From: Candidatus Heimdallarchaeum aukensis | GTDB taxonomy: Archaea > Asgardarchaeota > Heimdallarchaeia > Heimdallarchaeales > Heimdallarchaeaceae | DNA length: 64,000 nucleotides | Reading direction: 5' to 3' | Assembly: GCA_021513695.1 (NCBI GenBank) | Contig: CP084166.1 | Span: forward strand, 1,856,001-1,920,000 | Part shown: in pieces, positions 1,136 through 42,023 of the stretch | Position numbering within the stretch: position 1 is the first letter of the stretch | How the letters are laid out: the number at the start of each line of letters is the position of its first letter | Notes under the pieces: model-generated | The model's input: the letters and a program-made list of their open reading frames with translations, nothing else | What the model was told of the DNA's origin: nothing | Databases searched by the model: none | Translations under genes and position numbers: made by a program

Positions 1136-1960
1136 TTATTCTTCTTCGCTTGTAGTGATTACTTCTAATTTGTTTTTTAATTCGTCGATTCTAGAGAGAA
1201 GTATCTCTCCAGCTTTTTCCATTAACTTAGATGGTGGCATACCATTGTTAATTTCGAAAGAAAAGATAATTTTAGAAGAATCATGTTTTATTTGAACCGC
1301 ACCAGGTTCGGCAAAATCTGTACAGTAACCACATAAGTTACAGTTAAGTAGATTTTCAACAGTCAATTTCCCGTTTTTTATAGAAAATACATTACGATAG
1401 CATGCATCAGCAACTTTCTTGGGATCTTTAATTTTCTCATGATCAATCTCAATTACGGGGTAAAACTGATATCCCATCGCAGAGACAGGTTGCCATTTAG
1501 CATGGTTTTTTCCCGTACCAAGTTGAGCCATACATTCAAGCTCTAAAGCTTGATTAGGGCCTAACTTTACTATAGGAATTTTACTACTAATGGGTTCTAC
1601 TCCTTCCTGAGAAGAAATAAGATCACCACTGTAAACAATAGCAGGTTCTTGGCTTGTTTCTTTTGAAATTGTTAAAGTTACAGTACAAAGATTGCAACCT
1701 ATTCCATTGCAGTCACACTCATCTCTAAAGTTCAGCTCTAGAGTGTCAGCATCATATTTCAAAGGGATTAAGCCTAATCGTTGAGCTATAAATTCATCGA
1801 AAAGTGGAGAAGTGTTCTTTAACACATATACATCCTCAATAACAAGTGTTGGAACTTCAGCTATTGCTATTCTACGAATAGCATTGGCAAAAGCGATGCT
1901 AGTATCTTCTAATATAAATTTCACAGAATTCGGGAGTAATTCAATTATATCAATGTCCAT
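1136..1960 (-). CDS. rpoD: DNA-directed RNA polymerase subunit D (Rpo3)
   Basis: 274 aa with an ANAIRRI motif and two Cys clusters (CDCNGIGCNLC, CNLCGYC) of the archaeal Rpo3 4Fe-4S domain. It lies upstream of the L18e-L13-S9 genes, as in the conserved order. Confidence 0.85.
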   Translation of the reverse strand: MDIDIIELLPNSVKFILEDTSIAFANAIRRIAIAEVPTLVIEDVYVLKNTSPLFDEFIAQRLGLIPLKYDADTLELNFRDECDCNGIGCNLCTVTLTISKETSQEPAIVYSGDLISSQEGVEPISSKIPIVKLGPNQALELECMAQLGTGKNHAKWQPVSAMGYQFYPVIEIDHEKIKDPKKVADACYRNVFSIKNGKLTVENLLNCNLCGYCTDFAEPGAVQIKHDSSKIIFSFEINNGMPPSKLMEKAGEILLSRIDELKNKLEVITTSEEE

Positions 1961-2287
1961 ATAGTGCCACCTAGTAAAGGTTCATCTATACGAACCCAAT
2001 TATAATTATAAAAAAGGTTTTCCATGATATACTTTTTTACGTAAAGTTTTTCGCACTCTGTCTTACAAGAGAGAAAACTAACTGAAGGGGTTTAATCTCT
2101 TGAAATCAACCCAAGCATACAATACTATAAAGAGGGTTGAGACAGACATCATACACGAATCGTGGGAATCATAAAGAAGAAAAGAACTAAAAACTCTTTT
2201 CTTCACTCCACGAGAGACAAAAAAGAAAGAATGAAGAAACTAACTCTAACACAAAAGGAGAGAATTAGTCCTTTCTTTTTTTGTCTA

Positions 2288-3742
2288 CTAGAACTGCAAC
2301 CAATGGCTGAGTCCTCGGCAAACAGTGAAATGAGTAGAACTGTATTTTTGACCAGTGAGGTAATCAGTAATAGTGTTTCCTCGGGGACGGAAAAGCGTCC
2401 CAAGGAACTTCCGAGCGATATTCATTGCTCCTGTGAGGTCAGAGTGGAAAGTATAACCGCAAGAGGAGCAATGTACTAACCCTCTAACGGGACGGACAAC
2501 TTTCCTTCCACAACGAGCACAGTAAGAAGATGTCCCTTTTTCTCCTATTATTAATATACGGTGAGGTTCAAAACCTCGGAGTATCAATGCTCGACGGAGA
2601 AGAGCAAGAACAAGGTAAAAATTCCACTGGTGAAGTTTTCTACGAAACTTACGAGTACTTTTACCTTTCCCTTTTTCTTTCTCCTCTCGAATGTGTTTAG
2701 GGTAACCTACAACAACGAAAAGGTCATACTTTCGAGCATAGGTCTCTATCGTCTGGACGATGTCGCTTATAAATTGGTGAGTATAAGCTCGTTTAACGTT
2801 TCTATATCTTCTTCGAAGAAGACCGAGAAAACGATAGATTTGATGTTTCTTACCCGACTGGTCGTTTAGAGCCGCTTTCCTCTGAAGACGGGAAAGTTTG
2901 AGTTTATATCGATGATTAACTCTATTCCACTGTTTGGTATGCCATAATTTTATCTCTTTACTTGTTAATTTCTTTTTAGGCGTCAGTAACACTCCTGCAG
3001 CAGGAATGTTTATCCCTATATCTATTCCCAGCACAGCTGGAGGAAGAGAAGAAGAATTTTCTTCTTCAGGAGGATAAAAAGAGGAAGAAAGAACTTTTAA
3101 TTGGAAATATACCCACCACTCACGTGTAGAACGTTTATATCTTAACTCTAGACTTTTTATTCTTCCTTTCTTTAACTCTTTCTGGTGGAAAGTGCTCATC
3201 TCTAAAGGTAACCACAATCTCTGGTGGTAAGGTGTTCCTCTTCTCCATGTATCTAACGAGTCTCTTACCCCCACCCACCAACGAGTGAGAGTATTATCCT
3301 TCTCTTTAGGTAGATGAACTAGAATGAACCTCTTTTTGTTAATTAATTGTCTTCTTGCTCTCTTTATCGGAGGACGAGTAGGACTGGGTCTATACCCTTG
3401 TTCGTATAGTTGCACAGCTATATCTCTACACTCTTGAAACTCATCGTGAGAACAATAAGGGAACATTTTCTTGAAATCGTGAGGAACAGTTTCTCTCCTT
3501 TCCTCTTCTTTAACTTTTGAAGTCGTTAGCGTCAGTTCATCTAGTTTTCCTTTATGTACCCTTATTTCCCCTTTTTTTGTTCTTCTACATACCTTTCTTC
3601 TGTTGTGATGTATTATTCTCACATACTTCTCTATTATTCTTGTGTCTCTTCCTGTTATTCTCCTTAACCTTTCCTTTTTCCTTGTCGTCAATACCTTATT
3701 CTTTACTCTCACTTTCAAGGTTTTGACGACGTCCTCCATCAT
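2288..3742 (-). CDS. tnpB: TnpB-like RNA-guided endonuclease (IS200/IS605 family OrfB); no TnpA partner in the window
   Basis: 484 aa. Basic N-terminus, RuvC-I motif LGIDIGINIPAAGV, CxxC...CxxC zinc finger (CARCGRK...CSSCG) and RuvC-III motif HSDLTGAMNIARK. Local GC (~40-45%) is clearly above the ~30% flanks. Confidence 0.8.
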   Translation of the reverse strand: MMEDVVKTLKVRVKNKVLTTRKKERLRRITGRDTRIIEKYVRIIHHNRRKVCRRTKKGEIRVHKGKLDELTLTTSKVKEEERRETVPHDFKKMFPYCSHDEFQECRDIAVQLYEQGYRPSPTRPPIKRARRQLINKKRFILVHLPKEKDNTLTRWWVGVRDSLDTWRRGTPYHQRLWLPLEMSTFHQKELKKGRIKSLELRYKRSTREWWVYFQLKVLSSSFYPPEEENSSSLPPAVLGIDIGINIPAAGVLLTPKKKLTSKEIKLWHTKQWNRVNHRYKLKLSRLQRKAALNDQSGKKHQIYRFLGLLRRRYRNVKRAYTHQFISDIVQTIETYARKYDLFVVVGYPKHIREEKEKGKGKSTRKFRRKLHQWNFYLVLALLRRALILRGFEPHRILIIGEKGTSSYCARCGRKVVRPVRGLVHCSSCGYTFHSDLTGAMNIARKFLGTLFRPRGNTITDYLTGQKYSSTHFTVCRGLSHWLQF

Positions 3743-3870
3743 TCTTTTTTCCTTCCTTTCCTTTGTTTTCTTTTTTTTCTTCTCCTCTTTTTTCTTCTAT
3801 TTTTTTCACTATAAAAACCCCTCTCCTTCCTCTCCGCTCTTCTCTTTTTTCCTCACTTTGCCGCCAACAA
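3722..3870. repeat. Homopyrimidine (CT-rich) / homopurine low-complexity tract of about 150 bp
   Basis: The + strand is an almost uninterrupted run of T and C (tttttccttcctttcctttgttttctttttttt...) between the tnpB start and the tRNA-Leu gene. Confidence 0.7.
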
Positions 3871-3918
3871 CTGTAAATTAAGTAAAAAAATAGACGCATG
3901 GTTGTTTTTTTCTATAAA

Positions 3919-4022
3919 TGGTGAGGGGAGGGCGATTCGAACGCCCGAACCACTAAGGAACGGATGGCCCATCTTCTTTAAGATCTTGAGTCCGTCGCCG
4001 TTGACCTCTTGGCTATCCCCCC
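3919..4022 (-). tRNA. tRNA-Leu (anticodon CAA) with an anticodon-loop intron of about 19 nt; CCA encoded
   Basis: The reverse complement folds as GGGGGGA acceptor, 3-bp D stem, anticodon stem ACGGA/TCCGT with loop CUCAAGA, an insert TCTTAAAGAAGATGGGCC, a long variable arm, and T arm GGGCG-TTCGAAT-CGCCC. 3' strand TCCCCTC-A-CCA. Confidence 0.75.
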
Positions 4023-4170
4023 ATGTTAGATGAAGGATAAGCTCAAACGAACCTATTTTTCACATATTTTAAATTTTTTTGTAAGATATATTTCAGAATT
4101 TAATTTAAAATTAAATAAAAACATAAAAAAATTTGTTCCTCTAACAAAAGTAAAAAAATATGTTGTTATT

Positions 4171-4614
4171 CTAACGTTGTGGCTTTTGCTTTCTTCCTTC
4201 TACAAGCATTTTAATAGCCGCACCATTCACATGGGTTACTTGCCATTTTACTCCAGGAATATCTCCTTTTGCTCCCTTTTGTGCCCCACCTATAGAACAA
4301 ACAAGAACTTCATCATGTTCCTCAATATAGAGTAATCCTCCGTCGTGAGGAACAAAAGCTCCTATCTGTTTTCCATTCTTTGTTAATCTTACCCTTACAC
4401 ATTTTCTTAAAGCAGAGTTAGGTTGCTTACTTTCTACACCATATTTTTCAACCACAATTCCTCTTGCAGCTGGAGCACCTTCTAATGGATCTGCTTTTTT
4501 ATCTAATCTTAACATTTTTCGTTTATAATAGCTATCTTTCCAACGAAACTTTTTCCTCTTCTGAACTAATTTACGTGCTGCGTATTCTCCTTTTGGACTT
4601 TTCGAACCAGTCAT
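4171..4614 (-). CDS. rps12: 30S ribosomal protein S12 (uS12)
   Basis: ORF with [16 protein letters not shown]... and ...[31 protein letters not shown]..., the hallmark uS12 sequence. The start is placed at the internal Met matching archaeal S12 N-termini. Confidence 0.85.
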
Positions 4615-4796
4615 TTTATACACCATAGTTTTAATAAGTTTGACTCTACTACGTCTTCCTCTTATGTTTCTTCCTTTTACCTTTCATTAAAAAACTTTTG
4701 ATTTTATACATATTCTTTTTCTTATTGAGAGAAAAAAATATTTCAAAAGTTTATTTCCTCATAATTAATAAATAAAAGAAGGTTAAAAGAAAATTA

Positions 4797-6164
4797 TTAA
4801 TAGGAAGTTATTGAGACATCCTTTTTTGCTTTTTCATAATTTGGTTGAATTTTGTCCCATATTCCTTTTATTTTCTGAACATCATCAGGATGAGCATAAA
4901 CTCGGACTAATGTATACCTTGAATTTCCACTTGCTATGGTGTATATATATTTAGTTGCTATCAACGCTTCGCTAAGTGTAAAAGATTTTCTTCCTGGATG
5001 TATACGGTTGTGTGGATCATAAATGAAAACATTTGAAGCTTGAAACTCATCAGCGCTAATTGTAGAAAGTTTATATGTTGAATCAATTATCATTTTATGT
5101 TTTATTTTGATATTATTTGCTTTGGCATATTCTTTAACTTTTTTAATGAATGATTCGTTTGCAGTCATTTCACATAGTTCTTCTACAGAAACACCTAGAT
5201 TTTCAGAAGTTGTCTCGTCTATTATCTTTTCCCAGACAGCTTTGTGTAGGCGTCGGTTTAGAAAGTCTTTTACATACGCCTTGGCTTTCTTTAGCTCCGG
5301 AGCCTCGCTAGAAAATATTTCCCCTATTAATGTATATTCGTTCAAGTAGGTAAATAACTCAAAATCTTTTGTTCGTTCAATTAAATTAAGAGGTTCTAAT
5401 GACTCTCTTAAAAACGATTGAATTAGAATATCAGCAGCTCTTGCAGCTTTATGGAAATATACACTCTTATATTCAAAAAATCTACCAATTAAAGATGAGT
5501 AGATATCATCTAGAACTTTCCAATTATAATGTATGGCTTCTTCTCCGTCATGTTCATGAATTATGGTATTATTTATTATTCTATTAACATCAATTTCACC
5601 AAAGTGAGTAGTTCCAGCAAATAGAGAATCACGTAACATAAAGTCTAGTCTATCAGCGCCTAAAGCGCCTTGGATCAGAGGATGTAATAAATGACTACGT
5701 CCATCCCAAACTTTAATCAATTCCTCAGGGTCACAAAATTCCTCAATTATAGGCTTGAGTAAATCAGATTTTATCAATTTATTACGATGGACATCATGAC
5801 CATGGGGATGATCAGGATATACTTGTTTATAAACAACGTCATCATATTGATGACTAAATGGTCCATGTCCAATATCGTGGAGTAACCCTGCTAACCTAGC
5901 AAGTTGCACTTTATAGGTCACATCATCATAATCCTTGAACACTTCAGCAGTATATTGACCAGCTAAATGCATAACACCAACACAGTGAGCGAAGCGTGTA
6001 TGAACTGCAGAAGGGTAAACATGACGAACCCCAGATAATTGACTTATCCAGCGCAATCGCTGAAAAACAGGAGTGTCAATTATTTTATTTTCTATCTCGG
6101 TTATTCTTATTTCATCATGAATAGCATCTTTAATTGTACGAGTATATTTTAAATTAGACTGCAT
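4797..6164 (-). CDS. HD-domain dNTP triphosphohydrolase-like protein (dGTPase/SAMHD1 family)
   Basis: 455 aa with TPVFQRLRWISQLSG..HTRFAHCVGV...LLHDIGHGPFSH, the metal-binding motifs of HD-domain dNTPases. Confidence 0.7.
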   Translation of the reverse strand: MQSNLKYTRTIKDAIHDEIRITEIENKIIDTPVFQRLRWISQLSGVRHVYPSAVHTRFAHCVGVMHLAGQYTAEVFKDYDDVTYKVQLARLAGLLHDIGHGPFSHQYDDVVYKQVYPDHPHGHDVHRNKLIKSDLLKPIIEEFCDPEELIKVWDGRSHLLHPLIQGALGADRLDFMLRDSLFAGTTHFGEIDVNRIINNTIIHEHDGEEAIHYNWKVLDDIYSSLIGRFFEYKSVYFHKAARAADILIQSFLRESLEPLNLIERTKDFELFTYLNEYTLIGEIFSSEAPELKKAKAYVKDFLNRRLHKAVWEKIIDETTSENLGVSVEELCEMTANESFIKKVKEYAKANNIKIKHKMIIDSTYKLSTISADEFQASNVFIYDPHNRIHPGRKSFTLSEALIATKYIYTIASGNSRYTLVRVYAHPDDVQKIKGIWDKIQPNYEKAKKDVSITSY

Positions 6165-6256: not shown

Positions 6257-6363
6257 TGGTGGACTGGGCGAGAATTTCGGTCTAGACACCCACAGCGCCA
6301 TATCTCTCGAACTCGCGGCCTCTTCACTGCGAATGAAGCGTTCTTCCTCTGAACTACCAGCCC
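6257..6363 (-). tRNA. tRNA-Ala (anticodon CGC) with a ~32-nt insertion in the T-loop (non-canonical intron); CCA encoded
   Basis: Reverse complement: acceptor GGGCTGG/CCAGTCC with G3:U70, D arm GTTC-AGAGGAA-GAAC, anticodon stem CTTCA/TGAAG with loop TTCGCAG. T stem GCGAG/CTCGC encloses a 39-nt loop (TTCGA...GACCGAAATT), then ACCA. Confidence 0.6.
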
Positions 6364-6556: not shown

Positions 6557-6961
6557 TTATTTAACTCTCATAATTCTCATTTTGCCTAATGCTTTCCAGT
6601 ACTCTACTTCACACCCTTCCGTTATTTCTCCGTCTATTTCTCCTTCTGGGGGTAAACTTGCTTCAAATGTTTCGTATGTTTCCATGTCCATCAATTGTAC
6701 ACTGTCTTCGCTTATTGCTAATACTTGAGCAGTTCTTTTGTCTATTATAGGCGATTGTAATTTTTGGTCTCCAGGTATCGTTATTTCTGTTTTATTTCCA
6801 GTAAAAATGTTTTCTATTTTCATTCTACATTTTGCATGTCCATGTTTTCCTGATTTTGACTTTTCTATATCTCGTACTAGATATACATCTCCATCTTTAA
6901 CTATATAATTTCCTGCTTTTACTTGTCCAGCTTTTATCGGTTGAACATCATATTCACTCAT
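6557..6961 (-). CDS. eif5a: Translation initiation factor 5A (aIF-5A)
   Basis: 134 aa with the hypusine-site motif SKSGKHGHAKCRMKIENIFTGNK. Size and motif are typical of aIF5A. Confidence 0.85.
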   Translation of the reverse strand: MSEYDVQPIKAGQVKAGNYIVKDGDVYLVRDIEKSKSGKHGHAKCRMKIENIFTGNKTEITIPGDQKLQSPIIDKRTAQVLAISEDSVQLMDMETYETFEASLPPEGEIDGEITEGCEVEYWKALGKMRIMRVK

Positions 6962-8656: not shown

Positions 8657-8762
8657 AAGCCAAATAGTGGAGCCAGGACGGGGATTTGAACCCCGGAGGC
8701 ATAAGCCAGCGGTTATCTCTCTGATGTTTCGAGACCGCCTCCGTACCACTAGGATATCCTGG
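8657..8762 (-). tRNA. tRNA-Ser (anticodon CGA) with an anticodon-loop intron of about 13 nt
   Basis: Reverse complement: GCCAGGA acceptor, 3-bp D stem, anticodon stem GCGGT/ACCGC with loop CTCGAAA plus a CATCAGAGAGATA insert, a long variable arm, and T arm CGGGG-TTCAAAT-CCCCG. 3' strand TCCTGGC-T-CCA. Confidence 0.65.
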
Positions 8763-8903
8763 CAAAGGAAAAGTTCATTGTCTTGATTTTCATTGAAGTC
8801 AATATTTTAAGATTTCTACCTTGTTCACTTTTTAATTGATATAAGTACATTTGTGTTTCTTGATATTTTCGAACAAACAAAGATATGGTTAAAAAAAGAA
8901 AAG

Positions 8904-39682: not shown

Positions 39683-40798
39683 TCAAGTTGATGATAGCGA
39701 AATAGCTTCTAATACTTCTACTAAATTTATAATAAATTTGTCATTTATGGTATTTGTCCCCAATGTTACTAAAAGAGATTTCTCCTTATTTTTAAAAGCA
39801 TGCAATTTATCAAAGTTTTGTACTAATATTCCTTTACTGCATAAATATTCAAAAATTGGTTGTGTGTTATGCTCAAATTGCATGAAAATAAAATTAGAAT
39901 CAGTTCGAAAAGCTTTTACTCCGTTAAGTAGTTTTAGATATTCATAAACTCGTTTTCTTTCTTGCAAAAAAAGCTGGATGAGTTCAACAAATTTATAGGG
40001 ATTACGCAAGATATTTATGGCCACTAGAATATGAATAGGAGGAATCTCTTCAACCATATATAATTGCTTCATTTTTGTTATTATATTATCGTTTGCTACT
40101 AAATAGGCTAAAGAAAAAGCACCAATTCCCCAAGCTTTAGAAAAGTTACGGATGATGTGTAAATTATTGTAGTTATTTACTATGTTTATGAGCGAATATT
40201 TACCAAACTCAACATAAGATTCATCAACAATAATAGGAATATCAAGTTCATTAATCATGGATAACATACGAACTTCAGAAAATTGGTTTCCTGTTGGATA
40301 ATGTGGAGACGAAATTAAAATTGCTTTAACCTCTTCTGAAGAAGCTATTTCTATAATAGCATCAGTATTTAATTTATAATCATCCGACAAATCTACAGAA
40401 ATTTGTTTTAACATGAGTTTTTTTATTATCCTTGAAAAAATATCTTTTTCTGGATTAAGAATTATTACTTTATCATTTTTTTTAGTATAAAAACGCAGTA
40501 ATTTTTCAATTAGTGTGATATGTGAAATACCAGGATAAATGCATTTTTTAGCTACATTTGTAAAGCGACTTATTTCCTCAATGAAAGAAGAATAATCTAT
40601 AGGATACCTATCACGAGGATCAATTCTTTTTATTTCATTTATTGCTAGATTCCGAATGAGTTTGGGAGGTATAAATAAATTATCACCAGCACTAAGATCA
40701 ATGATTTGATCTATAGGGATATTATATTTTGATGCAATTTGTTTCTTTTTCATCAATCGATTGATACCATATAAAGTTGAAGAAACGTTATTCTTCAT
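39683..40798 (-). CDS. Class I/II PLP-dependent aminotransferase (HisC-like)
   Basis: 371 aa with the IIRNFSKAWGIGAFSLAYLVAN lysine motif (compare SFSKxxGxAGxRxGY). Confidence 0.6.
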   Translation of the reverse strand: MKNNVSSTLYGINRLMKKKQIASKYNIPIDQIIDLSAGDNLFIPPKLIRNLAINEIKRIDPRDRYPIDYSSFIEEISRFTNVAKKCIYPGISHITLIEKLLRFYTKKNDKVIILNPEKDIFSRIIKKLMLKQISVDLSDDYKLNTDAIIEIASSEEVKAILISSPHYPTGNQFSEVRMLSMINELDIPIIVDESYVEFGKYSLINIVNNYNNLHIIRNFSKAWGIGAFSLAYLVANDNIITKMKQLYMVEEIPPIHILVAINILRNPYKFVELIQLFLQERKRVYEYLKLLNGVKAFRTDSNFIFMQFEHNTQPIFEYLCSKGILVQNFDKLHAFKNKEKSLLVTLGTNTINDKFIINLVEVLEAISLSST

Positions 40799-41139
40799 GA
40801 TTGAATTTTTTGCCCAAATTTTATAAAGTTTAAGGAAGAGAGGAAATGTTTAGGTTTAAGCAGAAAAAAGAACAGCTTAAATGAGGAAATAGAAAAAAAC
40901 AAAGAATAGACATAAAAACAATAAGACTAGCTTTACTCTCCATTATAAAAAACAAAAATATTCCAAGTGAAAAAAAGCAACCTTTGTTTCTGGTTTTCGT
41001 AACCAAGGAGAGCTCAACCGTCTCCTCTGGCAACGTGAATGACAGTGCTTCTTATCTGAACTCACCCAAGAGTAAAATTGGTTGTGCAACTGTTTTGTAC
41101 AAAAATTAAGTTGATTGGAAATCTTTTAAAAATGAAATT

Positions 41140-41459: not shown

Positions 41460-42023
41460 TTATCGCACTTCAATACGTTTCTTTTCAACTGCCTTTATTA
41501 ATTCACGAGCAAAAGTTTGAAATGCCTCTTCTACCTTTTCTCCAGTTTTAGCACTAGTTATGAAGAATGAATCTGTAGGTAAATCAAGTTCTTTTACTAT
41601 ATTAAGTGCTTCCTCTTCATCAACAGCAATTTGATCTTTTAGATCGGCTTTATTACCAATAACAAAAAATATTACGTCATCCTCTACCCCATTTAATCCA
41701 CGTTTCCATTCACGTATAGATTCTAACGTGTTAGGCCTTGTCAGATCAAAAACAAGAAAGCACCCTTTTGACCCACGATAAAACTTCTCTCTAACAGAAG
41801 AAAACCTTTCTTGACCCCCAATATCTGAAATCAAAAATAATACCTCGTCCTCCCCCACAAATAATTGTTTACTTAAAATGTCTACCCCAATAGTGATCAT
41901 ATACGATGATTCAAATCGATTATGGACATATCTTGAAATTAATGAACTTTTGCCTACTCCGGGATCTCCAAGTAAGACAATTTTAAATATGTATTTTTTT
42001 CCCTGAGATTTATTTAGAGTCAT
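41460..42023 (-). CDS. Ras-superfamily small GTPase, Rab-like
   Basis: 187 aa with G1 GDPGVGKSS, switch I YMITIGVD (Rab-like TIGVD), G3 DIGGQERF, G4 GNKADL and G5 TSAK. Confidence 0.75.
   Translation of the reverse strand: MTLNKSQGKKYIFKIVLLGDPGVGKSSLISRYVHNRFESSYMITIGVDILSKQLFVGEDEVLFLISDIGGQERFSSVREKFYRGSKGCFLVFDLTRPNTLESIREWKRGLNGVEDDVIFFVIGNKADLKDQIAVDEEEALNIVKELDLPTDSFFITSAKTGEKVEEAFQTFARELIKAVEKKRIEVR

Follow-up and report, generated by a model that had tools for sequence, protein, structure and literature searches.

The TnpB nucleases of ISDra2 and GstIS reportedly act in the homing and retention of the elements that encode them. One group of TnpB proteins, termed TnpB2 or RIIr, carries a rearranged active site in which glycine or proline replaces the RuvC-II glutamate and an alternative glutamate lies about 45 residues downstream, on strand beta-5 (PMC10530073, PMC10691335). 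This rearranged site is active in TvTnpB and in Fanzor (PMC10530073). Near the ends of IS607 elements, imperfect inverted similarity has been described (PMC6188088). Here we analyze a TnpB-encoding locus of the Asgard archaeon Candidatus Heimdallarchaeum aukensis, within a stretch of 64,000 nucleotides referred to as the window. We consider it probable that positions 2023–3900, read on the minus strand, make up an intact non-autonomous transposon of an Asgard family, whose only cargo is a TnpB2/RIIr-type TnpB and an omega-RNA scaffold of ~265 nt.

Table 1. Features of the H. aukensis TnpB element and its neighbors, in window coordinates
Feature	Position	Strand	Basis or remark
Whole mobile element	2023..3900	-	1878 bp, CATG...CATG; blastn against related copies
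Left end, left terminal inverted repeat (CATGCGTCTATTTTTTTACTTAATTTACAG)	3871..3900	-	
TATA-like box TTTTTATAG, G-rich stretch before it	3809..3817	-	in all aligned copies
Purine-rich leader (89%), pyrimidine tract on + strand	3743..3865	-	
tnpB	2288..3742	-	484 aa; Pfam, NCBIfam, 28-homolog alignment, AlphaFold/Foldseek
RuvC-I D241 (motif LGIDIGI)	3020-3022	-	
G346, canonical RuvC-II position	2705-2707	-	
E401, alternative Glu	2540-2542	-	
Zinc finger CxxC...CxxC, C408/C411/C425/C428	2459-2521	-	
RuvC-III D435 (in FHSDLTGAMNIARK)	2438-2440	-	
Candidate omega-RNA scaffold, ~265 nt, stop codon to right border	2024..2290	-	11-copy alignment, folding
Right end, right terminal inverted repeat (...GAAAAACTTTACGTAAAAAAGTATATCAT[G])	2023..2052	-	
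Repeat pair I13	2030-2044/3878-3892		repeat search, window
Predicted guide segment ((G)GAAAACCTTTTTTATAATTA)	2003..2023	-	host DNA overlapping rpoD TATA region
tRNA-Leu(CAA) with intron	3922-4022	-	Rfam RF00005, 41.8 bits; outside element, neighbor only
rpoD	1136-1960	-	
rps12	4171-4626	-	

The tnpB open reading frame lies between rps12 and rpoD, 3' of the tRNA-Leu(CAA) gene (Table 1). This setting, the tRNA intron, which we place at ~19–22 nt, the 484-aa length of the ORF, its LGIDIGI, zinc finger and RuvC-III motifs, and the presence of an apparently intact OMEGA-type element without tnpA had been proposed in an earlier, sequence-only reading of the window, and our annotation bears all of them out. 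ARAGORN, run on the window, missed the tRNA gene because of its intron, and Rfam caught it. Scanning the window revealed no additional gene within the element and no other copy of it elsewhere. Nor did we detect a CRISPR-type array or tandem repeat within 12 kb; with rpoD and rps12 as neighbors, the gene lacks the adjacent array and/or cas1/cas2 that mark type V CRISPR-Cas (Cas12f-like) systems. About 10 nt separate the element from the downstream TATA region of rpoD, a gene read on the same strand, and the conserved core of the rpoD-operon promoter is left undisrupted.

We set the element borders by blastn to eight H. endolithica and five metagenome copies, and aligned 11 related copies. Similarity to these copies (79–88%) begins and ends at 2023 and 3900, with unrelated flanks, which corrects the limits of 2000–4022 given in the sequence-only reading. 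CATG always precedes the element body and CAT also closes it; the final base at the right border differs among the 11 copies (G in eight, A in two, T in one), and we therefore define this border as CAT|N. None of the 11 copies is flanked by a target-site duplication longer than CAT. At the left flank T never precedes CAT (0/12 vs 35% background, P about 0.006), while the right end reads TCAT, so that a VCAT motif could separate empty from occupied sites.

The architecture of the ends departs from the IS605 layout that the sequence-only reading had implied, in that they form terminal inverted repeats rather than same-strand subterminal hairpins. These repeats are imperfect, extend over ~22–30 bp and start with CATG. 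End-to-end local alignment scored 12–22 in inverted vs 4–9 in direct orientation, the inverted score being higher in 11/11 copies (shuffle p <= 0.02 in each). Comparing the left end with the reverse-complemented right end gave 26/30 for L007, 24/30 for L021, 20/30 for L002 and 15/30 for the window copy; an ungapped inverted-repeat search of the L020/L064/L067 subfamily yielded no clear match. Each end comprises two or three phased repeats of ~10 nt, such as TTTTTGCGAA/ATTTTGCGAA and TTTTTCCCCAC/TTTTACCACA, and left and right ends co-vary across three subfamilies. The inverted-repeat pattern of the ends can be written as CATGNTTN(3)TTTTT(T)[AG]CG. In the window copy the left repeat is slightly decayed (one extra T; ACGTAA changed to ACTTAA), and the right end has ATATCAT in place of the family consensus AAATCAT; with these three departures it may move less readily than related copies.

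A TATA-like box, also present in L021, a relative of 42% identity, lies within the left end and is presumed to be the tnpB promoter. The stretch previously described as a 150-bp homopyrimidine spacer proved to be a 123-nt tract, 89% pyrimidine on the + strand, located inside the element as part of the left end and 5' leader that the copies share at variable length. No other 120 nt of the window are as strongly strand-biased.

The TnpB protein matches Pfam Cas12f1-like_TNB (PF07282) at 35 bits, above the cut-off, and NCBIfam guided_TnpB over residues 165–445 at 78 bits, short of its cut-off of 100. Profile comparison with the PDB retrieved Cas12f/TnpB at E 1e-18 to 1e-17. Its AlphaFold model (pLDDT 81.5) resembles Cas12f, ISFba1 TnpB, ISDra2 TnpB and Fanzor2 over the full length in Foldseek (E down to 2.5e-15), with E values of 1e-15 to 1e-11 over ~460–490 columns against 8j3r, 8dzj, 8iaz, 8h1j and 9b0l. 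A full canonical catalytic layout, as first read from the sequence, is not what the alignment of 28 homologs (down to 32% identity) revealed: D241, D435 and the zinc finger are retained, but the canonical RuvC-II glutamate is replaced. D241, G346, E401, C408, C411, C425 and D435 are invariant and C428 nearly so (>=90% of sequences); the canonical RuvC-II position reads VVVG346YP, and E401 lies 55 residues further downstream. Because an invariant glycine occupies the canonical position and E401 provides an alternative, the RuvC site is, on the evidence of this alignment, of the rearranged TnpB2/RIIr type, in which D241, E401 and D435 would lie close together. In the model, E401 directly follows strand 396–400 (beta-5) and G346 closes strand 340–347 (beta-4), an arrangement described for RIIr-5 TnpBs (PMC10691335). 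HMMER alignment to Cas12f offered E353/E354 as the catalytic glutamate; we did not adopt these residues because they are unconserved in the clade, and they fall in a disordered loop (pLDDT <50). Its acidic triad, zinc finger and TnpB/Cas12f fold place the protein in the TnpB/OMEGA superfamily, and nuclease activity is predicted from sequence and model. The gene is under purifying selection, with dN/dS of 0.12–0.22 between copies and ~0.15 for the window copy vs every other copy. The longer homologs are MazE or wHTH fusions, with no transposase fusions among them.

Conservation among copies ends abruptly at 2023/2024 (CAT|N), and the region between the tnpB stop codon and this border fits a candidate omega-RNA scaffold followed by a guide derived from the flank. 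Across the 11 aligned copies we found 57 consensus pairs, with 98.6% of cells paired vs 42–57% when the partners were slid; six pairs carry compensatory changes among these fairly close copies, and the loops contain indels whose lengths are not multiples of 3. The sequence-only reading had expected a GC-enriched omega RNA at ~2000–2350 on the minus strand. A conserved structured RNA does occupy 2023–2290, as minus-strand folding also indicates (MFE -72.5 kcal/mol, z = -4.48), and the expected enrichment is absent, this non-coding 3' part having a GC content of 33.6%. Against a covariance model of the family, the region reaches 217 bits. An Rfam scan of 1–10 kb (E<=1) assigned no known RNA family to 2023–2290. 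A model restricted to the 3'-most 189 nt (R1) matched the window copy and L012 only, and neither covariance modeling nor nhmmer detected the 3' regions of relatives at 37–42% protein identity, so the covariation could not be extended beyond close copies. The guide region is whichever flank follows each copy. Here, following the TnpB paradigm, we infer a guide role for the 21 nt adjoining the right border (Table 1), which are unique in the window.

The element is not the lone foreign gene first supposed, and its horizontal acquisition is not supported. H. aukensis encodes at least four proteins of this TnpB family and its sister species H. endolithica at least 8–13 copies, at eight or more loci. 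All close relatives of the protein belong to Heimdall or Thor archaea, a clade that, at 50% identity, accounts for only ~29 clusters out of 1.84 billion representatives; by these matches the element is a member of a small, multi-copy, Asgard-only family. TnpBs in viral contigs are only 21–28% identical (short segments up to 48%), and the inverted-repeat pattern has five single matches there. The copies are old (dS 0.2–0.8) and include shortened ones (L011; cluster members of 392–434 aa). The supposed contrast in GC (40–45% vs 30%) measures 39.8% for the tnpB coding sequence vs 31.9% for the window, ~+2 sd relative to window ORFs (mean 32.0%, sd 3.6, n=34). Because a bias of this modest size is shared across a resident multi-copy family, we dropped foreign GC as a sign of recent horizontal transfer.

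Copies with the same ends occupy unrelated loci, for instance beside ogt, uvrB or a HAD hydrolase gene. We considered the tRNA gene as the insertion target and rejected this because the remaining copies do not adjoin tRNA genes. The TnpB-free locus sought for comparison was found: L014, L015 and L018 have an empty site that runs rps12, tRNA-Leu, 107 bp and then ATGGAAAACC...rpoD, and contain the predicted guide segment in identical form. Relatives without the element at the tRNA-Leu/rpoD locus are 88–96% identical, and the insertion is therefore lineage-specific. In the window the element lies 21 bp downstream of the tRNA gene, and the sequence to its left, 18 bp compared with the 107 bp of the empty-site alleles, is unlike theirs.

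The tnpB-only arrangement is the commonest TnpB context (PMC10691335), and one could take the locus for a standard IS200/IS605 element of the IS1341 group, mobilized as ssDNA by a Y1 (HUH) TnpA that would recognize subterminal hairpins and insert it 3' of CATG. A TnpB2 enzyme, TvTnpB, does reside in an IS605 element (PMC10530073), both ends here hold a small palindrome, TTACGTAA, the right end could form ACTTT-ACGTAAA-AAAGT, and there is no long target duplication. We nonetheless judge this reading improbable: the ends resemble each other in inverted rather than direct orientation, in L021 and L007 the repeat motifs (CCCCACTTTT, TTTTGCGAA) are non-palindromic and form no same-strand hairpin at the left end, and a Y1 gene is found beside 0/8 annotated distant relatives and inside none of 14 close copies. 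More broadly, the Pfam-annotated neighbors of the eight distant relatives include neither a Y1 nor a serine-recombinase, DDE or Cas1 gene, and the 14 close copies have sharp homology borders between which a second gene would not fit. Two unannotated neighbor proteins of relatives (231/232 aa) are unrelated to each other, and a DUF87 ATPase is encoded upstream of two relatives. It is unlikely, on our assessment, that the Heimdall/Thor clade constitutes an undescribed transposon type that unites a TnpB2-omegaRNA module, terminal inverted repeats of phased 10-bp units, CATG insertion and a transposase newly linked to TnpB; its mover may then be a DDE enzyme, a serine recombinase with an AT core or a relative of the DUF87 ATPase acting as a partner. 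Were this so, the archaea most closely related to eukaryotes would provide a counterpart of the TnpB-in-inverted-repeat transposon otherwise typical of eukaryotic Fanzor1.

The state of the window copy invites further readings. Its altered inverted repeats, the age of the family, the existence of shortened copies and the generally low recent mobility of archaeal TnpBs (PMC10691335) would all suit a stranded relic, in which an immobile element keeps an intact gene by chance or through recent arrival and the nuclease serves no current role. A full-length ORF free of frameshifts, the low dN/dS vs every other copy, the match of the RNA region to the family model and a site that is polymorphic among relatives make this quite doubtful. 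Far more improbable still is domestication into an immobile, TldR-like or otherwise exapted TnpB whose RNA regulates the adjacent rpoD/ribosomal-protein operon. The catalytic residues are invariant, elements with the same ends lie at many unrelated loci, close relatives have the locus empty and the guide is simply the local flank of each copy, even though the element, on the strand of rpoD, closely precedes the TATA region of that gene, the predicted guide overlaps the rpoD promoter and several relatives also adjoin core translation or transcription genes. The lost catalytic residues, fixed single copy and guide to a promoter elsewhere that characterize nuclease-dead TldR-like proteins are not found here.

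We therefore return to the intact non-autonomous transposon, an ordinary kind of TnpB element with unusual ends. Transcription would begin at the left-end TATA-like box, and TnpB would bind the 3' part of the transcript, extended by ~16–20 nt into the host flank. The resulting RNP would recognize the matching 20 nt in an element-free allele beside a short CAT-ending motif and cut there; this motif is probably VCAT, with cleavage and TAM dependence predicted from the sequence. Recombinational repair from an occupied copy would then restore the element. Given that it has no transposase of its own, and has CAT(G)-bordered ends of phased inverted repeats without a longer duplication, we presume that a recombinase whose gene lies outside the element mobilizes it in trans. 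This end signature would result from an IS607-like serine recombinase that uses a 2-bp AT core for exchange, and equally from a DDE enzyme with a 2-bp duplication in CATG.

For the gene annotated as "transposase" in the two circular Heimdallarchaeum genomes, the exact borders, candidate scaffold and predicted guide would define a complete OMEGA element. Rearranged-site TnpB enzymes reportedly act without collateral cleavage, and a compact one from an Asgard archaeon would be an addition for genome editing. The inverted-repeat ends and CATG borders fit neither IS200/IS605 nor IS607, and the element bears on whether the pairing of TnpB with inverted-repeat transposons predates eukaryotes.

Compared with the TnpB-omegaRNA systems of ISDra2 and other IS200/IS605 elements, most of which are likewise tnpB-only, the Heimdall element shares the single RuvC nuclease with its zinc finger and WED/REC/RuvC fold, an RNA scaffold at the 3' end on the tnpB strand and a guide taken from the flank past the right end. 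It differs in its relocated RuvC-II glutamate, in a scaffold placed almost wholly past the stop codon, where theirs overlaps the ORF, in ends that are inverted repeats, whereas IS200/IS605 elements have same-strand subterminal hairpins without terminal inverted repeats, and in CAT(G) borders in place of a T-rich target motif of 4–5 nt. With the TnpB2/RIIr-5 enzymes (e.g., TvTnpB of Thermoplasma volcanium) and Fanzor it has in common the change of the RuvC-II glutamate to glycine, an invariant alternative glutamate ~45–55 residues on, just before the TS..CxxC zinc finger, and, in most of the clade, a NADxN-type RuvC-III motif. TvTnpB, however, is carried by an IS605 element that also has a Y1 TnpA, and Fanzors have eukaryotic or viral hosts; in sequence, the protein is only weakly related to Fanzor1, with SpuFz at rank 47 in Foldseek (TM 0.26) and absent from the profile matches.

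IS607 elements, which pair a serine-recombinase TnpA with TnpB and include archaeal ISC1926, resemble the Heimdall element in several respects: a target-site duplication is lacking, one short sequence recurs at both borders, as a 2-bp exchange would leave it, the ends contain helically phased short repeats, and there is imperfect inverted similarity close to them. Their termini and targets are GG, unlike CAT(G)/AT here, they have subterminal inverted repeats, set in unequally from the two ends, instead of terminal ones, and they possess a serine recombinase, a gene for which was not seen in the annotated neighborhoods of eight relatives. Symmetrical inverted-repeat ends link the element to IS630-associated TnpBs (DDE-6 branch) and to Fanzor1 in Tc1/mariner-type transposons. 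By analogy with TA in CTAG of IS630, a 2-bp duplication within a 4-bp palindrome would yield C-AT-G borders, but the duplicated core would be AT, not TA, and in the copies examined we saw neither a DDE transposase gene nor an HTH gene alongside. Finally, the Asgard TnpBs associated with aCas1 (Cas1H-Asgard-1/2, PMC10691335) likewise have Asgard hosts and repeat-flanked TnpB loci; they differ in that a Cas1 gene lies beside 0/8 annotated relative loci of our element and, comparing by description, in their downstream GTTCACTCA motif, which is absent here.

The 484-aa open reading frame (ORF) downstream of tRNA-Leu in Candidatus Heimdallarchaeum aukensis is 100% identical to UJG39849.1 and is the only gene within a 1878-bp element, which we delimited by blastn comparison with eight paralogous loci of the sister species H. 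endolithica (L001-L008) and five metagenome contigs (L009-L013). Identity to these copies is 79-88%, and the similarity starts and stops sharply, placing the window copy at 3900 to 2023 on the minus strand, the strand shared by all genes of the locus; its first bases are CATG and its last CAT(G). Three features of the neighboring tRNA identify it as tRNA-Leu(CAA): an anticodon loop of CU-CAA-GA, an intron after it, and a long variable arm. Rfam confirmed this intron-containing gene, which the sequence-only reading had placed beside TnpB, and ARAGORN did not call it. Elsewhere in the window, ARAGORN places a 96-nt 'tRNA-???' at 8668-8763(-), whose anticodon has 4 bases and which probably contains an intron too; at 6308-6363(-), Rfam matches part of a tRNA below threshold (25.7 bits). 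The window also encodes, at 41460-42023(-), a small GTPase of the Ras/Roc/Arf family (187 aa; Pfam Ras, 149 bits), which counts among the eukaryote-like signature proteins of Asgard archaea.

Genes of the rps12 to L13 locus in minus-strand order (window coordinates)
Feature	Position	Strand	Remark
rps12	4171-4626	-	first in gene order
tRNA-Leu(CAA)	3922-4022	-	Rfam 41.8 bits
484-aa TnpB ORF	2288-3742	-	between tRNA and rpoD
rpoD	1136-1960	-	after 484-aa ORF
L18e, L13	beyond rpoD	-	last in gene order

The homopyrimidine tract previously read as a spacer belongs inside the element as part of its 5' leader: a 123-nt, 89%-purine stretch (3743-3865; pyrimidine on the plus strand). In strand asymmetry, no other 120-nt segment of the 64-kb window equals it (0.89-0.90 purine). 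This leader is kept in the close family and missing from relatives at 37-42% identity. A conserved GGGG-TTTTTATAG box at 3809-3817, upstream of the purine leader, also occurs in a relative with only 42% protein identity and is presumably the tnpB promoter. The GC content of the coding sequence is indeed elevated (39.8% versus 32.0 +/- 3.6% for 34 window ORFs), as noted earlier from sequence; this difference is not evidence for a recent foreign origin.

Contigs of close relatives provided the comparison with a TnpB-free locus that had been proposed. In L014, L015, and L018, which encode an identical S12 protein and are 88-96% identical to the window in nucleotides, the order is rps12, tRNA-Leu, 107 bp, ATGGAAAACC...rpoD, and the element is missing. 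These contigs and the window agree at 100% over the 55 nt on the right side of the insertion point; on the left, the window has 18 bp between tRNA and element that are unrelated to the 107 bp. A fourth contig, L017 (Ga0190359_1041806), is 97% identical to window 3905-5331 and shares 17 of the 18 bp beside the tRNA, but carries a different piece of about 235 bp without TnpB (L017:1428-1665) downstream of tRNA-Leu, and this spot is therefore a hot spot for rearrangement. This piece terminates in AAACTTTATACAAAAAAGTAGATCAT, much as the element does at its right end, and the DNA beyond bears no relation to the rpoD promoter. Either a miniature derivative or a past rearrangement between element copies may account for it. 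Window 40796-40960(-) is related to the L017 piece (71.5% over 116 nt) and ends ...TTGGGCAAAAAATTCAATCATG. Its final ATG is where the aminotransferase ORF 39683-40798(-) starts, as though a remnant of a right end had become joined to the beginning of a gene.

The two ends of the element are inverted repeats: its first 22-30 nt match its last 22-30 nt when these are reverse-complemented (20/30 in L002, 26/30 in L007, 24/30 in the distant relative L021). Local end scores were 12-22 for inverted versus 4-9 for direct orientation, and inverted similarity was significant by shuffling in 11 of 11 copies (p <= 0.02). Two or three roughly 10-nt repeats make up each end (e.g., TTTTTGCGAA-ATTTTGCGAA), and an independent repeat search of the window recovered the pair 2030-2044/3878-3892. 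End repeats define three subfamilies (...TTTTTTACGTAA; ...CTTTTTGCGAA; ...TTTTCCCCACTTTT), within each of which left and right ends share one variant; this co-variation is not universal, since L003 and L009 join an ACGTAA-type left end to a GCGAA-type right end. The window copy has the most decayed ends (15/30, one extra T, ACGTAA changed to ACTTAA).

No target duplication beyond the CAT common to both borders was found. The base following the right CAT varies (G8, A2, T1), and T is absent from the position ahead of the left CAT (A6, C4, G2; against a T background of 35%, P about 0.006); the right end, by contrast, reads TCAT. The non-T at -4 suggests a target-adjacent motif (TAM) of the form VCAT, which, if true, would leave the occupied site uncut. 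The terminal CATG of some copies overlaps the boundary of a host gene: at L004:3859-3868 a 224-aa ORF on the reverse strand starts at the CAT, and at L008:3832-3853 a 554-aa ORF continues into the element for 21 nt. CATG targets and start codons may frequently fall together.

The encoded protein carries LGIDIGI, two CxxC pairs, and FHSDLTGAMNIARK, and matches Pfam Cas12f1-like_TNB and, under the cut-off score, NCBIfam guided_TnpB. Across 28 aligned homologs (identity down to 32%), D241 (RuvC-I), T404/S405, C408, C411, C425, and D435 and N441 (RuvC-III) are invariant, and C428 is conserved in at least 90%. G346 ends a hydrophobic strand, VVVG, at the place of the RuvC-II glutamate of canonical TnpBs, and E401 lies three residues ahead of the TS..CxxC motif, both residues being invariant as well; in an AlphaFold model (pLDDT 81.5, pTM 0.66), G346 closes strand 340-347 and E401 comes after strand 396-400. 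As modeled, this layout matches that of clade RIIr-5, in which the catalytic Glu is shifted from beta-4 to beta-5 and replaced by Gly (PMC10691335). The same arrangement is termed TnpB2 or Fanzor-type in work that found the alternative Glu to be needed for cleavage and TvTnpB to be an active TAM-dependent nuclease (PMC10530073). Foldseek grouped our model with Cas12f, ISFba1 TnpB, Fanzor2, and ISDra2 TnpB (E 2.5e-15 to 7e-11 for chains with a resolved RuvC domain), and a profile search of the PDB concurred. Among copies, including paralogs of one genome, dN/dS is 0.12-0.22 at dS 0.21-0.81, and the copies are thus under purifying selection. The nearest outgroup homologs include N-terminal fusions to the TnpB part (P0152, 852 aa; P0156, 736 aa) with MazE/AbrB-like or winged-HTH (MarR/TrmB) regions, recalling the archaeal MazE/RHH-TnpB association reportedly described by Altae-Tran et al.

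Downstream of the stop codon, the 265 nt to the right border are conserved in every copy, about where the sequence-only reading had expected an omega RNA, the TnpB guide RNA (2000-2350); the GC enrichment it saw there is not borne out (33.6%). Indels in the variable hairpin loops have lengths that are not multiples of three. RNAalifold found eight helices (57 pairs), with 98.6% of cells paired versus 42-57% when 3' partners were slid 1-3 columns, two-sided changes at six pairs, and a covariation score above all 500 shuffles, the slide and shuffle controls being only indicative given how closely related the sequences are. The single-sequence folding that had been proposed likewise gave a structured RNA (-72.5 kcal/mol, z = -4.48); no Rfam family matches the region. 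Conservation ends at ...ATCAT|N, beyond which the sequence differs copy by copy, a layout that reads as a putative omega-RNA scaffold followed by a flank-derived guide. The predicted guide of the window copy, (G)GAAAACCUUUUUUAUAAUUA (2023/2022-2003), occurs nowhere else in the window and overlaps the TATA region of rpoD.

Four H. aukensis proteins fall in the 90%-identity cluster, and H. endolithica carries fragments in addition to at least eight full loci. Transposase/integrase families reach up to 27 copies in Heimdallarchaeum genomes in a survey that did not analyze TnpB (Wu et al. 2022, PMC8813620). All homologs at E < 1e-60 whose source names an organism are from Heimdall- or Thorarchaeota, bar one fragment labeled Aenigmatarchaeota; IMG/VR held none of the family's close relatives. 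We call the family small because it has 29 cluster representatives (E <= 1e-30) among 1.84 billion. Other copies sit in intergenic DNA away from tRNA genes, with ogt, uvrB, and a HAD hydrolase gene among their unremarkable neighbors. An 81%-identical copy at L011:1108-2733, which lacks the left inverted repeat and whose RNA region stops after GTGGAGTG, is a truncated or rearranged family member. In the Heimdall relative L064, two copies of the right-end terminus GAGAATAACTCAT lie downstream of tnpB at 6842 and 7024, separated by 182 bp, which suggests a tandem or solo right-end remnant. HerA-like DUF87 ATPases (789/891 aa) are encoded at L064:2325-4694 and L067:2023-4698, on the tnpB strand and some 300 nt upstream of that gene; the ATPases are 57% and the TnpBs 56% identical, and the downstream genes differ. 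In a third relative, at L020:5465-6000, only the final 220 nt or so of ATPase gene homology is left. Conserved synteny or a mobile unit of larger size could explain this association.

What moves the element can be framed by its borders. A DDE transposase duplicating AT in a CATG target would give the observed picture, with a parallel in IS630 (TA in CTAG). An IS607-like serine recombinase with exchange at an 'AT' core would give exactly the same picture; the IS607 family shows no duplication, phased repeats, and the same dinucleotide at both borders, namely GG (PMC6188088), and GG termini are absent here. No transposase gene of any kind was found in the neighborhoods of eight distant relatives, and inside the 14 close copies the sharply bounded homology leaves no space for a second gene.

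At the core of the element is a TnpB-omegaRNA (OMEGA) module belonging to the rearranged-RuvC class. It shows all testable defining features of the TnpB/OMEGA superfamily, and nothing marks it as a domesticated TldR-like TnpB or a CRISPR effector. The element's end architecture differs from that of IS200/IS605 and its termini from those of IS607; we therefore regard it as a known kind of TnpB element with a variant, unclassified transposon backbone. Neither an archaeal tnpB-only element nor the relocated glutamate would surprise a specialist; what is new and useful is that an Asgard-restricted clade has inverted-repeat/CATG ends, along with an RNA and guide ready to test.
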